From a candidate division WOR-3 bacterium (GTDB lineage: Bacteria > Hydrothermota > 32-111): a stretch of 64,000 bases of DNA. Position numbers and translations under genes: made by a program. Within the stretch, counting starts at the first letter, position 1, and every line of letters starts with the position of its first letter. The notes beneath the pieces are model-generated. The model made no database searches, was not told where the DNA came from, and was given only the letters and a program-made list of their open reading frames with translations. Positions 1 through 5,361 of this stretch are shown in pieces. The stretch is taken from assembly GCA_039804105.1 (NCBI GenBank), contig JBDRZU010000001.1, forward strand, positions 192,001-256,000. The letters are read 5' to 3'.

Positions 1-831
1 CGGTGAATGGGAAATAATGTCTTTTTTTCGAATGGCGTGGCTTAGTTCGGTTTTTCAAAACTTCCTGCACTATCTCAAAAGTTGCTCTGGAAAAAATTAG
101 TTTAAACTTATCCTCATAAGTTTCACTATTGTGGACAATCAAGCCAATGTAAACTTTATTAGTTAACATTCTTTGGATTGTTGCTTTACAAAGTGGCTTT
201 CCGTTTTTACTTATCACGCCCCAAAATTTAAGCTGTTCTCCTAAACTTTCTAAAGTATGTTTTCCATGGCTATATTCTTCAAATGCCCTTTTAATTATTT
301 TTGATTTTACTGGGGCTAGTTCTATATTTCTTGTTTTGGGATTGTTCACATAGCCAAACGGCGCAAGTTCGGGCCATTCTACGCGTCTCAATTTTTGTCT
401 AATCCCGCGTTTTACATTTTCGGACAAATTATCGAAGTAGTATTTACTCTAGCCAAAGTCGACTTGAAGCATAAAAAGTCCTTGCGGAATTGGCTCAAAC
501 CAAAATGTAGGAAAACGCAAAGAAACGATCTTGCCAATATAAATAAGATAAATAATTTGTCCGCTATCAACACTGTTTCTAGCTAACCTGTCTGGATGCC
601 AGGCCAAAATCCCAACAGGTTCTTTTGATTCATAAATTTTCTGTATCATGTTATTAAAAACTTCTCTTCCGAGTTCTTTGCACTTTTACTTTCAATAACC
701 TTTTCAGCAATAAAAAGATTTTCTCTTTTAGCGTATTCCATCAACTCAGTTAATTATGCTTCAATGGACATCACTTGTTTTTCTTCATCTTCTGTTGATT
801 TGCGAGCGTAAGGAAAATATTTTATTTTCAT
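1..831 (-). pseudogene. Large serine recombinase (resolvase catalytic domain + recombinase domain), disrupted; runs off the window start
   Basis: Manual translation from ATG at 831: MKIKYFPYARKSTEDEEKQVMSIEA*LTEL (catalytic YaRkS motif), then ILAWHPDRLARN, LSENVKRGIRQKLRR, APFGYVN, RMLTNKVYIG. Stops at 756-754 (TAA) and 451-449 (TAG), one frameshift near 675-680. Confidence 0.9.
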
Positions 832-952
832 ATGTTTTCTCCTTAAATTTTAAAAACTGGCTTCGTATTTCCACCAAAGGCGGAAAAGAAAAAATTGAAA
901 ACAAAATTTTCATTTTGTGCGTTGCTTTGCAACGTCGAACTGCCGTTGGTCG

Positions 953-1131
953 CAATTACTGAACGAAGCACGAACATATTTTGAACAAAATCATGACTAA
1001 CATGTTAGTCGCCTTCGTCGACGCACATCCACCTCCTACCCAACAGAAGCGGCGGGAAAAAATTCCTTCCCTCAGACCCGTTTCCTTTTTGCCGCCCGCC
1101 ATGCCCGCTTCGCGGGCGTGCCGCCGATTTT
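953..1131 (+). repeat. Left copy of ~180 bp inverted repeat
   Basis: 953-1000 matches the reverse complement of 4659-4706 at 43/48; 1051-1131 matches the reverse complement of 4527-4607 with about 7 differences; the middle ~50 bp is diverged. Confidence 0.95.
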
Positions 1132-1156
1132 TAGGAAAGAAAAAATCAAAAAACTC

Positions 1157-1185
1157 TTGACATTATTAAAATAATTTTGTATCAT
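1157..1185 (+). promoter_or_regulatory. Sigma70-type promoter of the cassette, TTGACA-N17-TATCAT
   Basis: Near-consensus hexamers just inside the left repeat, upstream of the XRE gene. Confidence 0.65.
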
Positions 1186-1227
1186 AATTATAAATTGTTA
1201 TTACTGCATATATACATCAATACTATA

Positions 1228-1446
1228 ATGTCAAAAGAGATTTCGCAAATGGGTAAAAATATAAAAAAATTAAGAGAACAAAAAGGCCTGTCCCAAGATT
1301 GGCTTTCTAAAATAGCTGATAATTCCTATAACACAGTCATAAAGTTAGAGTCGGGCGATATTACCAATCCCTCAATTGACACGCTTCAAAAATTAGCCAA
1401 GACTCTTAATGTTTCCGTTGATGATTTATTGAAAGTGCCAAAATAA
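1228..1446 (+). CDS. XRE-family HTH regulator (RM controller-like)
   Basis: NIKKLREQKGLSQ...IKLESG...NPSIDTLQKLAKTLNVSVDDLL; ATG 1228 preferred over TTG 1177. Confidence 0.88.
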   Translation: MSKEISQMGKNIKKLREQKGLSQDWLSKIADNSYNTVIKLESGDITNPSIDTLQKLAKTLNVSVDDLLKVPK

Positions 1447-1450
1447 AAAT

Positions 1451-2503
1451 ATGAACGATTACAAAGAACGAAAATATTTATCTTCGATAGAGGCTGCCAA
1501 GTATTTAGGTATTACCGTTGAAATGCTACATAATTTAGTTAGATCAAAAAAAATCAAATGTATTATTGCAGCAAGCGGACAAAAACGCTTTGATTTAAGA
1601 GATTTAAAAGAATACGAAAAAACAAATCTTAAAATAGATAAAGAACATATTAAGGAAATAGAATTGCCTGTGGAAAATGTATTGAGCATTAATAATACTA
1701 TTCAAAAAATCTTTATTAAAAATGCTATGAGCATGGATGAATTAAAAGATGATTCAATCCATTTAATGGTTACTTCACCGCCTTATTTCGATGCCAAAAT
1801 GTATACTAAAAAACCGATCAAAAACGATTTAGGTAATATACATGATCTTGATGAATGGTTTGAGAAAATTAGTGCGGTTTGGAAAGAGGTCTTTAGAGTT
1901 TTACAGCCGGGGAGAAAAGCATTCATTAATATCATGAATTTACCTGTAAGAGACAATGGAGGATTTAAATCTTTGAATTTAGTTGGTAGCACTATAGATA
2001 TAATGGAGAAAATTGGATTTATCTTTAAAAGAGATATAGTGTGGCATAAAACTCATGGTGTTAAAGCACATTTTGGAACTTATCCATATCCAGGCGGAAT
2101 TCTTATAAATAATATGCATGAATTTATTTTGGAATTTAATAAACCTGACAAAAAGGGATTTAACAAATATGGACATCTAACTAAAGAACAAAAAGAAGCA
2201 TCCAAACTTGATAAAGAATTTTGGTTATCCCTTAAAAATACTGATGTTTGGCTTATGAAGCCGCAGAATAGTGGTGATAACCGTTTACATGTAGCCCAAT
2301 TTCCTTATGAGTTACCTTATAAAATAATTAAAGCATTTACCTTCGTTGGCGAAACAGTATTAGATCCATTTTTAGGAAGTGGTACAACCTTAAAAGCAGC
2401 GGCAGATTTAAAACGAAATGGTATTGGTTACGAGATTGTTCCTGAAATTGCAGAAACAGCGATAAAAAATTTAAACAATTATCAAAGTAAATTATTTGTC
2501 TAA
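1451..2503 (+). CDS. Beta-class amino DNA methyltransferase (probably N4-cytosine) with N-terminal excisionase/MerR-like HTH
   Basis: N-terminal YLSSIEAAKYLGIT...GQKRF; catalytic TSPPY precedes SAM-binding VLDPFLGSGTT. Confidence 0.92.
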   Translation: MNDYKERKYLSSIEAAKYLGITVEMLHNLVRSKKIKCIIAASGQKRFDLRDLKEYEKTNLKIDKEHIKEIELPVENVLSINNTIQKIFIKNAMSMDELKDDSIHLMVTSPPYFDAKMYTKKPIKNDLGNIHDLDEWFEKISAVWKEVFRVLQPGRKAFINIMNLPVRDNGGFKSLNLVGSTIDIMEKIGFIFKRDIVWHKTHGVKAHFGTYPYPGGILINNMHEFILEFNKPDKKGFNKYGHLTKEQKEASKLDKEFWLSLKNTDVWLMKPQNSGDNRLHVAQFPYELPYKIIKAFTFVGETVLDPFLGSGTTLKAAADLKRNGIGYEIVPEIAETAIKNLNNYQSKLFV

Positions 2504-2507
2504 AATT

Positions 2508-3632
2508 ATGAAACAAGACGCAAAAACAATTTATGCTCAATCAAGCGATATTAAGTCTAGAACTTATCTAGAATATCGCAAAGATATGAAACAAAAAGCC
2601 ATTGCAGAACTAGAAGTTTTACCTTGGCTACGAGAGAAAGTTAAAGAGAAAGATAAAAAGGCTACAGTAGAAAAATTTGGTGGGGATAAATTTATCTGGT
2701 TTTTGAGAAAGGGAGGAATTACCAGAGAACCTGATTTTGTCATTAGATATTCGGACGGAAAAACTAAATTCGTTGAATTTCAATATGCAAAAGAAGAGCT
2801 AAATGCTTATGATTTTAAAATTTCTAAAATAGCTCCCCGAGATAGAACTCTAAAGAAAAGAGTCCCTAAAGATGATACAGAAATTTTATATGTTATAAAA
2901 CCAACTAACAAATTCGCTATTTTATATCCTTCTTGGATAGTTAGAAATTCAAAAGAAACAGTAGCAGCAGCATGGGGCAACGCCCCAGTATTTAGAGTAC
3001 CCGCTAATAAATTCAAAAAAGTTTTAATGACAGATAATAGCTTAAATAAAGTTTGTGACTCTATAGATAAAAAAATAGCAATTTTAGAATTTCAACATAA
3101 AGCTATTGAAATTGAAAAAGAAAAAATGTCCTACCTATTACAACAGGTTGTTGATGAAAAAAAAATTTTGAAAATAATTCCTCAAACATTAGATGGTTTT
3201 TTTAAGGTTTGTTTTATACTCAATCATCTAGAAAAAATTCCTATTAATGCTAATTTATGGCTTATCTACCTTTTGTCTTTTTTGAATACAAAATTAAACT
3301 CCCTAGAATTATTTCAGTTAATTTATAGTTTAGATTTTCTTTATTTAAAAATTGAGTTAAAAGAAAACGAGTTAAATAAATTAGTCGAAAGCTTAAAAGA
3401 GATTCAAAATCAGATTAATGAATTTTCAAAACCAGATGGTTCATATCAATCCGATAAAACTATATCGCCATTAGAAGATACAAGATATTCATTATTCTCA
3501 ATAAATATTCTTGAAGATTTAATACAAGATGTTTTGTATTATTATGGAAACAAAGTTAATTTGAAGCCCATTACTAGAATTTATCAAAATGTTTCAGATA
3601 TAGAGAAAACCTTTGAATTTATTTCAAAATAG
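2508..3632 (+). CDS. Putative restriction endonuclease (PD-(D/E)xK-like N-terminus, helical C-terminus)
   Basis: Starts 4 nt after the MTase stop; EPDFVIRYSDGKTKFVEFQY resembles a PD...ExK core with Q in place of K. Function inferred mostly from context. Confidence 0.55.
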   Translation: MKQDAKTIYAQSSDIKSRTYLEYRKDMKQKAIAELEVLPWLREKVKEKDKKATVEKFGGDKFIWFLRKGGITREPDFVIRYSDGKTKFVEFQYAKEELNAYDFKISKIAPRDRTLKKRVPKDDTEILYVIKPTNKFAILYPSWIVRNSKETVAAAWGNAPVFRVPANKFKKVLMTDNSLNKVCDSIDKKIAILEFQHKAIEIEKEKMSYLLQQVVDEKKILKIIPQTLDGFFKVCFILNHLEKIPINANLWLIYLLSFLNTKLNSLELFQLIYSLDFLYLKIELKENELNKLVESLKEIQNQINEFSKPDGSYQSDKTISPLEDTRYSLFSINILEDLIQDVLYYYGNKVNLKPITRIYQNVSDIEKTFEFISK

Positions 3633-3634
3633 GT

Positions 3635-4032
3635 ATGGAAAATAGAATTAAGCATTTAGAATTTATACAATCTATAAATCAACAGAATGGCTAATAATTC
3701 ATTTATAATGAAAGTCTGGTCGATAACTTTGATTGCGGTTTTTTTGCTTTATCCTCAAAAGATGCTAACAAAAATTATATTGTCATTTCTCTCTTGCCTG
3801 TTATAATTTTTTGGATTCTAGATAGATATTTTTTATCTAGAGAAAGAGCATTCCTTTGTTTATATAACAAAGTAAGAAATTTACACGTGAAGGATATTGA
3901 TTTCTCTTTAGATATTTCAGAATTTAGAGAGCGAAAAAATAATTGGTTTCTGTCGATTTCTTGCATACAGTTTTATTTTTCTATGCTTCTTTAATAGATG
4001 TTATGTTAATAATTTCATATCTAATCAAGTAA
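3635..4032 (+). pseudogene. Frameshifted small multi-pass membrane protein upstream of the TIR gene
   Basis: Reconstructed MENRIKHLEFIQSI/INRMANNSFIMKVWSITLIA/FFALSSKDANKNYIVISLLPVIIFWILDRYFLSRERAF.../FYASLIDVMLIISYLIK*; frameshifts near 3677, in the T-run near 3740 and near 3960-3975. Confidence 0.75.
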
Positions 4033-4036
4033 AATT

Positions 4037-4528
4037 ATGGCAAGACGAGTATTTTTTAGTTTTCATTATGAAAGGGATATTTGTCGAGCAAGCCAAATTA
4101 GAAACAGCTGGATAACAAAACCAGACAGAGAAACCGCTGGCTTTTGGGTCGCTGCTTCGTGTGAGGAAGTAAAAAAGAAAGGCAAAGAAACAATTAAACG
4201 ATGGATTGATAATCAACTCAATGGCACATCTGTTACGTTAGTGTTAATAGGAGCTGAAACCAATGAGAGCAAGTGGGTTAGTTATGAAATTCAAAAAAGT
4301 TATCAAATTGGAAATGGTATGTTGGGTATTTATAATCGTAATATGAAAGATCAGTATGGACGAACTTATTATAAAGGTAAAAATCCATTTTATAATTGGT
4401 CTATTACAAGAAATACTCAAAAAATTCTTCTTTCATCTCTTTATCGGACTTATGATTGGGTTTCTGATAATAGATATAAGAATTTAGTTGATTGGGTAGA
4501 AAAAGCGGCGAAAGATGCTGGAAGATAA
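4037..4528 (+). CDS. TIR-domain protein, ThsB/DUF1863 (MTH538)-like
   Basis: RRVFFSFHYERD, TSVTLVLIGAET, SKWVSYEI (catalytic Glu present), GNGMLGI. Confidence 0.88.
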   Translation: MARRVFFSFHYERDICRASQIRNSWITKPDRETAGFWVAASCEEVKKKGKETIKRWIDNQLNGTSVTLVLIGAETNESKWVSYEIQKSYQIGNGMLGIYNRNMKDQYGRTYYKGKNPFYNWSITRNTQKILLSSLYRTYDWVSDNRYKNLVDWVEKAAKDAGR

Positions 4529-4706
4529 AATCGGCGGCTCGCCCACGAAGCGGGCATGGCAGGCGGGCAAAAAGGAAGGGGTCTGGGGGAAGGAATTTTT
4601 TCCCGCCCTTTAGTTTTGAGTGTCGCGGGGGCGACCGTATTCGAAGACGACGCAAAGATTAGTCAGAATTTTGTTCAAAATATATTCGTGTTTCATTCAG
4701 TAATTG
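4527..4706 (-). repeat. Right copy of ~180 bp inverted repeat
   Basis: Reverse complement aligns to 953-1131; begins within the TIR stop codon (TAA AATCGGCGGC...). Confidence 0.95.
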
Positions 4707-4732
4707 AGAAAATTTTTAAATTTCTTTGTTTC

Positions 4733-4760
4733 TTGACACTTTTCATGATTTAAATAAAAT
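4733..4760 (+). promoter_or_regulatory. Sigma70-type promoter TTGACA-N16-TAAAAT
   Basis: Hexamer match upstream of AGGAGG and ATG 4783. Confidence 0.6.
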
Positions 4761-4782
4761 CAAATTTTTAAAAGGAGGTAAT

Positions 4783-5361
4783 ATGAACAATAAATTTTTC
4801 ACATTTATTAAACCTTATCTTGCATTCATCGACAATGGAGATTTCTTTAAAAAACCATTTTTATGGCTTTACACAATTTTAGCGTTAATCAATCTGATTA
4901 TTCCTATTTATATTCTTTATGAAGCAATTGACAACAAGATTTTTGATGCTGGGGCAAAACATGTTTTTATATTTTTTATAGTTTGGTTGATAATAACTTT
5001 TGCAAGTTGGGTCAGTTTTCAGTTGTGGTGGGATAGAAGGTTTAAAGTTGTTTCCATATCGAAAATGGGGGACGATTTTGTTGTGATTCCAATATTTTCA
5101 CATTTTGTTCAAACAGCAGGGGAATGGATAGGAACATGGCTTGGTATCGTTGGTTTTTTTAGTTCTCTTCTTGTGTCTTTATTTATTGGAGAAGAGGGTA
5201 GTAATTTTATGCAAAATTTAAACCTTGGTTTTTTGAGTTTGAATTTCATATTTATTATTTTAATGCCTGTAATTGGTTTTCTGATAATAATTGTAACAAG
5301 ATTTTTATCTGAACAGTTCAAAGCGATTGCGATGATCGCTAACAATACGAAAAAAAGTTGA
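4783..5361 (+). CDS. Hypothetical membrane protein (about 4 TM helices)
   Basis: Strong SD AAAGGAGG before ATG 4783; four long hydrophobic segments. Confidence 0.8.
   Translation: MNNKFFTFIKPYLAFIDNGDFFKKPFLWLYTILALINLIIPIYILYEAIDNKIFDAGAKHVFIFFIVWLIITFASWVSFQLWWDRRFKVVSISKMGDDFVVIPIFSHFVQTAGEWIGTWLGIVGFFSSLLVSLFIGEEGSNFMQNLNLGFLSLNFIFIILMPVIGFLIIIVTRFLSEQFKAIAMIANNTKKS

Follow-up and report, generated by a model that had tools for sequence, protein, structure and literature searches.

Inverted repeats around a defence gene cassette as probable attachment-site arms of a decayed large serine recombinase island at a tRNA-Pro gene

The DNA analysed here, which we call the window, is a stretch of 64,000 nt (G000:C1:192001-256000) from the 1.8-Mb genome (G000) of a candidate division WOR-3 bacterium (assembly GCA_039804105.1, contig JBDRZU010000001.1). 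Close to its left end, two inverted repeats of ca. 180 bp enclose a cassette of five genes and adjoin a gene for a large serine recombinase (LSR). These repeats are, very probably, arms of the attachment sites of a 5.4-kb LSR integrative island that is situated at the 3′ end of a tRNA-Pro(CGG) gene and contains an additional, inverted attP. The island extends from G000:C1:191311 to ca. 196708 (window −690 to ca. 4708) and is an immobile fossil: its LSR gene is a pseudogene, of which the genome has no second copy, and half of the internal attP has decayed. A preliminary description, made from the sequence alone, had instead seen in the repeats the dedicated ends of a defence cassette that a recombinase lying outside it would invert, capture or exchange.

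The extent of the insertion was deduced from an empty site in a genome of the same genus (G001), whose flanks are 89–92 % identical to those of G000. In G001, 44 nt separate the end of the left flank, at the 3′ end of tRNA-Pro, from the start of the right flank, and both flanks are in the same contig and strand. In G000, the tRNA-Pro(CGG) gene occupies G000:C1:191238-191313 and its 3′ end constitutes the left edge of the island, 690 bp to the left of the window. Alignment of both genomes shows that the tRNA body ends with the discriminator A in both, and locates one junction at the discriminator base and the other at ca. 4708; after the discriminator, G001 continues with a T-rich spacer and then a membrane-protein gene, and G000 with CCA and the end of the LSR gene. 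The LSR remnant fills the space from the tRNA to the left repeat. The empty site therefore indicates that the inserted unit is the whole island of ca. 5.4 kb, with the LSR gene inside it and not outside, as had been proposed. The search for an empty site in relatives that the preliminary description recommended was thus successful, but what the site bounds is the complete island and not the cassette between the repeats. The outer edge of the right repeat coincides exactly with the right junction, and the left repeat is internal. An insertion recognised through its empty site and delimited by a hybrid attL and a hybrid attR corresponds to a serine-integrase element.

Some further features of this locus are worth recording. 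The CCA that follows the discriminator of tRNA-Pro in G000 is supplied by the island (L014:11311-11313); the empty site of G001 (L114) encodes no CCA. In the other genomes of the genus that were compared (G002, G003 and G004), the flanks are on different contigs and thus provide no second empty site. Their contigs break at or near tRNA-Pro, or other DNA follows it (end of G004:C18, L116; G002:C26, L117; G003:C18:1-1133, L115), and the tRNA-Pro locus may be a variable hotspot in these genomes.

The existence and the position of the repeats were as first described (Table 1). Inverted with respect to each other, they agree at 80 % over 179 nt (whole-genome search, E 2.3e-37), and their best ungapped block (1051–1131 and 4527–4607) reaches 89 %. 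The right repeat begins within the stop codon (TAA, 4526–4528) of the open reading frame (ORF) for a TIR protein, the promoter-like site of the cargo starts 26 nt past the left repeat, and the ATG of the LSR gene (831, minus strand) lies 121 nt from it. The G+C content of the repeats is 0.49–0.52, versus a background of 0.29–0.30, and is 0.30 in both the window and the genome. A profile built from five copies, two from the window and three from relatives, identified only these two copies in the whole genome (E 7e-47 and 8e-47, with the next match at E 5); the repeat is, then, not scattered, which had been the condition posed for refuting its link to the recombinase.

Three sites can be distinguished in the island. 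In site A, the tRNA end is followed by the LSR gene end, and in site C the far repeat is followed by host DNA. Site B is inverted and joins the near repeat to a copy of the gene end through the same few core bases. Sites A and C are the attL and attR expected when an attP composed of repeat, core and gene end has recombined with an attB at the tRNA end; the core shared at the crossover in G000 is CGA. Site B is a complete upside-down copy of attP between the LSR gene and the cargo. The repeats are thus recombination-site sequences tied to the LSR, in agreement with the idea of dedicated ends, but they are not equivalent to each other: the right one belongs to attR, and the left one makes up one half of the internal inverted attP.

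This layout is shared by a large family of islands. We searched public contigs, one genome per species, with two intact LSR proteins (from G020 and G003), and obtained at least 578 loci confirmed by tblastn. The counts of layout given hereafter use the best 80 of these, which according to their record titles are mostly from Patescibacteria, with some from Omnitrophica, Bacteroidetes and others. As denominators we took the loci that extend 150 bp or more past the match for the tRNA (n = 67), 200 bp or more upstream for the spare gene end (n = 77), and 8 kb or more upstream for the far repeat (n = 33); complete elements are 26 in all. A minus-strand tRNA was found at the 3′ end of the LSR gene in 61 of 67 loci, comprising 12 amino-acid types. 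In 65/77 loci, the 90–170 bp immediately upstream of the LSR gene are an inverted copy of its 3′ end that enters a few bases into the tRNA, and a far inverted repeat abuts this spare gene end in 24/33 loci (26 in all). The two repeat pairs overlap by 3–22 nt, mostly by 4–7, and the cargo, measured from the near to the far block, spans 1.1–8.9 kb. Many related contigs end 300–450 bp upstream of the LSR gene, where the repeat would break the assembly. Of the features of the family, the island of the window has the tRNA at the LSR 3′ end, here tRNA-Pro(CGG), the far repeat pair, and an HTH_3 gene as the first of the cargo.

The contents of the islands are variable, and the association of homologous LSRs and equivalent repeats with different cargo, often defence genes, recurs in the 26 complete loci, as the preliminary description had suggested checking. 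In 16 of these 26 relatives, the ORF nearest to the internal attP and divergent from the LSR gene codes for an HTH_3 protein of 64–89 aa. DNA methylases are found in 11/26 cargos, several with known restriction enzymes (ApaLI, BglII and MamI), with GmrSD or HNH nucleases, or with a full type I system; other cargos contain SMODS/SLATT, AAA_15, Panacea, ubiquitin-like or PLD genes, and in some cases ordinary genes for metabolism or the surface. Defence genes are thus common in the cargo, though not universal.

Within the phylum, the LSR family is rare, with 8 of 200 sampled genomes, including G000; of 39 relatives sampled, 5 contain the outer 40 nt of the repeat, which frequently form an inverted pair. 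The layout of the family is found in G020 and G003. G020 has an intact LSR of 537 aa that contains all three domains and whose 3′ end overlaps a tRNA-Pro(CGG); a repeat copy, 79 % like that of the window, is situated 126 nt upstream of the LSR start, and both repeat copies are at contig ends. G003, from the same genus as G000, contains a 543-aa LSR homologue at a tRNA-Ser(CGA), and a 12-kb cargo of lipid and export genes, without defence genes, between repeats that are 92–94 % identical; a second inverted pair, 99 % identical, brackets the LSR gene. This 14-kb island (G003:C1, L023:2688-17046) includes an IS256-type transposase fragment and genes for TetR, FabH, a glycosyltransferase, MMPL, a LolA-like protein and a radical SAM enzyme. 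Sequences similar to the conserved outer end of the repeat were also present at L024:3951-3991 and L025:10636-10677 (both G011) and at L026:7067-7177 (G026), where no LSR of the family was found at E 1e-40. Additionally, a single repeat-like arm lies right after the tRNA-Pro(CGG) of G029:C29 (L027:9888-10094), with the conserved outer end 130 nt downstream and no LSR beside it, and looks like the scar left by an island of this family that was lost. A search of viral contigs returned only three LSR relatives, the best with 42 % identity, and gave no sign of a link to phages or of excised circles.

Conservation within the repeat is not uniform: 50 nt of the left repeat are conserved across the elements of the tRNA-Pro type, and the inner 130 nt only among close relatives. 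The outer end was examined in the 48 loci having both a tRNA and a spare gene end, by comparing the 45 nt that leave the shared block on the repeat side with those on the tRNA side, with the tRNA side shuffled as a control. The longest word common to the repeat outer end and the tRNA was the complement of the T-loop in 32 of the 48 loci. This word is farther from the core in the repeat than in the tRNA, by 5 nt in 13 loci and by 6 nt in 19, and the shuffled control yielded 0.3 loci per round at +5; in G000, a T-loop-like word is also shifted by 5 nt (counted by eye). In serine integrases, the motif bound by the zinc-ribbon domain lies at a distance from the centre that is 5 bp shorter in attB than in attP, as stated in the part of PMC3783163 available to us. 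By this rule, the outer 50 bp of the repeat are a P-type half-site, and the T-arm and acceptor end of the tRNA a B-type half-site, with the distal motif shifted by 5 bp between them. The T-loop is universal, and its use as the distal motif would explain how a single family can exploit so many tRNA genes.

The same outer sequences probably also have a coding function. The LSR ORF crosses the core, and the integrated gene ends in residues read from the antisense strand of the tRNA. In the spare copy, the LSR frame runs 12–20 codons into the repeat and stops after an A-R-T-x-F-E motif; this tail followed by a stop was present in 48/55 readable loci (counted by eye), whatever the tRNA. In the window, the 17 final codons of the native LSR tail, with their stop, can also be read at positions 947 to ca. 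1000. Both repeats preserve the reading of the 17-codon tail, with two changes in the right one (on the reverse complement).

We thus propose that the LSR of the island would have acted on attP and the extreme 3′ terminus of tRNA-Pro(CGG), recombining them immediately past the discriminator base and leaving the tRNA intact. The resulting order on the chromosome would be the tRNA-Pro with the LSR gene end (attL), the LSR gene pointing at the tRNA, the internal inverted attP, the XRE gene and cargo, attR and host DNA. The left repeat would be the element arm of the internal attP and the right repeat that of attR, with the outer 50 bp acting as the P-type half-site of the LSR and containing the codons for the last 17 native residues of the enzyme. 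The data show the insertion and its limits, the layout common to the family, the geometry of the half-sites and the decay; catalysis by the LSR and the existence of an excised circle are to be expected by analogy with known serine integrases.

None of this activity is left in G000. The LSR frames are interrupted by in-frame TAA and TAG stops and by at least one frameshift, the remnant as a whole showing several shifts of frame, and the gene is no longer an intact ORF. In a tblastn comparison, the intact 537-aa relative covered the full length of the remnant with 64–66 % identity (66 % over the N-terminal 74 codons), with stops at around codons 26, 128 and 329 and a scrambled C-terminal third; read through in its frame, the gene contains 11 stops. 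The remnant retains the domains Recombinase (PF07508) and Zn_ribbon_recom (PF13408), and the intact relatives contain PF00239, PF07508 and PF13408. The gene was, then, correctly assigned to the large serine recombinases in the preliminary description, which did not notice that it is a pseudogene. Decay is also evident in the internal attP: the counterpart of 832–946 in G020 matches the sequence after the tRNA for ca. 75 nt, and G000 keeps only scattered similarity. The spare gene end of G000 preserves the core TGGTCG and the tail codons, with the 115 nt beyond decayed almost past recognition. The two repeats of the window, 80 % alike, have also diverged in comparison with those of intact relatives (93–100 %). 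The methylase, 378-aa and TIR ORFs of this decayed island are still open.

The original proposal, that the adjoining LSR acts on the repeats as equivalent ends to invert, capture or exchange the defence cassette, in the manner of a natural platform for recombinase-mediated cassette exchange (RMCE) or of an integron, seems to us quite unlikely. It agrees with the finding that the repeats bracket variable cargo in 26 related loci and that the internal site is a complete attP, so that the cargo lies between two P-arm sites, as it does in engineered inverted-attP cassettes. However, the orientation of the cargo is fixed: the XRE gene was at the LSR-proximal end, on the opposite strand, in all 16 complete elements with a recognisable XRE (of 26), and in 18/26 cargos at least 80 % of the ORF residues are on the strand opposite the LSR, which argues against a flipping cassette. 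The empty site shows as the inserted unit the whole island and not the cassette and, according to the accessible part of PMC3783163, serine integrases on their own recombine only attP with attB. Moreover, the strain of G000 occurs in hot-spring metagenomes of two studies, and contigs from four metagenome runs bridged both repeat junctions in the assembled orientation only; the mapping of junctions that had been recommended thus confirmed both of them and revealed no inverted, circular or otherwise alternative joint, although contigs cannot show rare forms. In the window, the enzyme that would rearrange the cargo is dead.

Some rearrangement at these sites does take place, because the LSR segment is flipped in 4 of the 80 loci (L055, L058, L084 and L063), although the part flipped is this segment and not the cargo. 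In these loci, the tRNA is on the same strand as the LSR gene and upstream of it, and the inverted copy of the gene end follows. The LSR gene of L063 (1318–3891) carries the native tail, and both gene-end copies are on a single contig and are 85 % alike, which makes a misassembly driven by the repeats unlikely. This may reflect either integration through both attP copies or a flip of the segment between the two gene ends; the usual arrangement outnumbers the flipped one by 61 to 4 loci. In the metagenome contigs with the stretch of G000, a few odd joints (13132->16708, 11332->13140 and 12979/15885, in L014 coordinates) had only 20–41 letters on their short side and 85 % likeness, and were not counted. 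An invertible switch of the Hin/Gin type or a shufflon was likewise discarded, given the large type of the enzyme, the fixed orientation of the cargo (16/16) and the single orientation in contigs.

A further alternative, which we regard as very unlikely, is that the repeats have no relation to recombination and are structured RNAs or terminators duplicated along with the cargo. Their high G+C content and local hairpins are compatible with this, as are a terminator-like site at 4584–4605, just past the TIR gene, and the better conservation of the inner 81 nt (89 %) in comparison with the middle. Nevertheless, folding of both strands of both copies was not better than that of shuffled sequences (z-scores of −0.96, −1.68, +0.47 and −0.46), the window contained no Rfam match at gathering score, and a permissive scan of 800–4900 produced only chance-level matches (E 6 in the repeat), which does not sustain the structured character initially attributed to the copies. 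The terminator-like site is one found versus 1.9 expected, and the outer 50 nt are accounted for by the half-site and the tail codons. A role of the inner repeat as a terminator is, in any case, compatible with the repeats being attachment-site arms: the inner 130 bp are a G+C-rich spacer that, in a circle, would separate the converging LSR and cargo genes and may terminate transcription in both directions, a guess based on that one terminator-like site. Lastly, it is hardly credible that the repeats are the terminal inverted repeats of a non-autonomous transposon, derived from a miniature inverted-repeat transposable element (MITE) or an insertion sequence (IS), since, although inverted copies do enclose passenger genes, there are only two copies in the genome, neither a transposase nor a target duplication was seen around them, as first reported, and in many genomes the repeats accompany a single LSR family at tRNA genes.

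Several observations do weigh against the repeats being attachment-site arms of an island, or limit the precision of this explanation. No excised circle, inversion or empty-site variant was found in public contigs, with the limit already indicated for rare forms, and in the 26 complete loci the far repeat never runs on into the gene end, as it would in a circle. In G003, the far site contains 25 nt of the tRNA 3′ end and not a pseudo-end; the crossover point is therefore not uniform among the members of the family, and either this point or the history of the island differs there. A far repeat was lacking within 10 kb in 9/33 loci, and a spare gene end in 12/77. The tail motif overlaps the T-loop-like word, so that its conservation may be at the level of DNA rather than protein. 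The attR of G000 differs in a few bases from the flank in G001, making the junction good to ca. 5 nt, and the position of the crossover is defined no more closely than the shared CGA. Finally, the purpose of the internal attP is not explained.

A possible, though tentative, answer is that the doubled attP is a working switch, in which case the family would be a self-regulating integration module that reads the T-loop of tRNAs and spreads defence genes across Patescibacteria and other phyla. Integration may lock the island in place by exchanging the native LSR tail for residues read from the tRNA antisense. The spare copy would store an intact attP together with the native gene end, and the native enzyme would be restored either by integration through the spare site or by a flip of the LSR segment; the four flipped loci among the 80 would then represent the second state.

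The cargo of the window contains the five genes originally listed, in the same order (Table 1). The HTH_3 gene belongs to the backbone of the family and is only a candidate regulator; no recombination directionality factor was identified. Together with the methylase and the 378-aa ORF, it is reminiscent of a type II restriction-modification system with a control protein; the methylase is clear, the 378-aa partner is without a family, and the XRE protein is not a proven control protein. The position of the 378-aa ORF is in line with its initial annotation as a probable nuclease, as are weak structural neighbours in the Atlas for residues 6–183, including clusters that partly carry Hjc or NOV_C (TM scores of 0.31–0.36 by query); it had no family in Pfam, PADLOC, NCBIfam or PDB sequences. 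The structural similarity is a lead only for a putative nuclease. Positions 3634–4528 correspond to the candidate defence pair PDC-M50, with an intact TIR partner and a broken membrane partner, of which an ORF of 66 aa (3794–3994) matches positions 56–122 of the 134 of PDC-M50A (E 1.4e-16). Neither a classical Thoeris nor a complete PDC-M50 system can be assigned, as there is no ThsA beside the TIR protein and the PDC-M50A-like partner is broken. No family was found for the product of the first host gene to the right of the island.

Table 1. Features at the left end of the window (positions in nt of the window).
Feature	Position	Strand	Basis or remark
5′ part of the LSR pseudogene	1-831	-	Gene continues left of the window to tRNA-Pro
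LSR ribosome binding site/promoter region and decayed spare LSR gene end (right arm of internal attP)	832-946	-	Comparison with G020
Core of internal inverted attP, TGGTCG	947-952	.	Reverse complement of the tRNA-Pro end CGACCA
Left repeat	953-1131	+	Probable element (P) arm of internal inverted attP; G+C 0.52
Promoter-like site of cargo operon	1157-1185	+	TTGACA-17 nt-TATCAT, 11/12 consensus matches only
Small XRE/HTH_3 regulator (candidate), island backbone gene	1177-1446, likely ATG 1228	+	HTH_3 E 2.7e-15; PADLOC control-protein/HTH models
HTH_17 and N6/N4 DNA methyltransferase (type II)	1451-2503	+	PF01555 E 3.3e-44; MTase_II E 1e-57 (PADLOC)
378-aa ORF, candidate restriction endonuclease	2496-3632	+	Overlaps the methylase stop
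Broken small membrane gene, PDC-M50A-like	3634-4030	+	Seven stops reading 3636-4030 in one frame
ThsB-like TIR protein (PDC-M50B)	4037-4528	+	ThsB_TIR E 3.7e-23; ThsB1 E 2.1e-60; PDC-M50B E 8.1e-59
Right repeat	4527-4706	-	Probable element (P) arm of attR; G+C 0.49
attR junction with host DNA	4707-4712	.	Placed within ~5 nt by alignment with the G001 empty site
Host membrane-protein gene, first of right flank, outside the island	4783-5361	+	Follows tRNA-Pro after a short spacer in G001

The family is widespread and, apparently, undescribed, although islands of serine integrases are themselves known. In agreement with the opinion that this is not a described class of element, full-text searches of the open literature led to no description of this layout of LSR island, a coverage that leaves out subscription journals and supplements; searches for an inverted attP led only to engineered cassettes, and the portions available of PMC12455944 and bioRxiv 10.1101/2024.03.08.584096 give no account of the element. 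Serine integrases are textbook enzymes and tools for genome engineering, and yet several of the features found here appear undescribed, namely the reading of the universal T-loop and the 3′ end of tRNAs, a gene that runs across its own attachment site, and a second, inverted attP. With at least 578 loci among contigs from one genome per species, the family is very common. Through it, restriction-modification, CBASS-like, TIR and other defence genes are spread among ultra-small bacteria, in which little is known of how genes are exchanged. To this, the window adds a clean empty site that proves the boundaries, a host outside the ultra-small bacteria, and a view of how an island decays after the death of its LSR. 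An integrase specific for tRNA ends, with a defined P arm of 50 bp, could also be useful for engineering.

Among known systems, the closest are the integrative elements, prophages included, of the large serine integrases of A118/LI, Bxb1, phiC31 and SPbeta (SprA). The islands resemble serine-integrase elements in having an LSR of three domains (Resolvase, Recombinase and zinc ribbon) and in being inserted without a long duplication. They also share a P-type half-site with its distal motif 5 bp farther out than in the B-type, as far as the consulted part of PMC3783163 goes. They differ in targeting the extreme 3′ end of many kinds of tRNA genes, in that the LSR ORF crosses attP, so that integration exchanges the last 15–17 residues, and in keeping inside a complete second attP and gene end in inverted orientation. 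Small islands that carry cargo, in some cases for defence, and are moved by serine recombinases are described in the part of PMC11470126 that could be consulted. The best NCBIfam matches of the LSR of the intact relative were CcrB (E 6e-29, 101 bits versus a cut-off of 900) and XisF (E 4e-25, 89 versus 375). The Ccr system of SCCmec and the fdxN element of XisF are thus similar in combining small cargo islands with a serine recombinase, but the scores are far below the cut-offs of these families, the target is another, and the sources, as far as available, report no internal inverted attP. Tycheposons are small cargo islands at the 3′ ends of tRNA genes that leave the tRNA intact, according to the portion of bioRxiv 10.1101/2020.12.28.424599 at hand. 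Their enzyme is a tyrosine recombinase and the tRNA end is present in them as direct repeats, whereas the islands studied here have a serine recombinase, a core of 3–7 nt and inverted repeats. Engineered inverted-attP cassettes (MiMIC, RMCE) contain two inverted sites that part two segments, a topology also predicted for the circle of the island; they are, however, artificial, and nothing observed here supports an inversion by the island LSR. A natural case of two inverted sites separating two segments is the yeast 2-micron plasmid, in which, unlike here, a tyrosine recombinase acts on identical sites. The likeness to integron attC sites put forward initially fails at every defining feature: the enzyme is a serine recombinase, the cargo is provided with a promoter-like site of its own, and the repeats occur once per island end and not once per gene.

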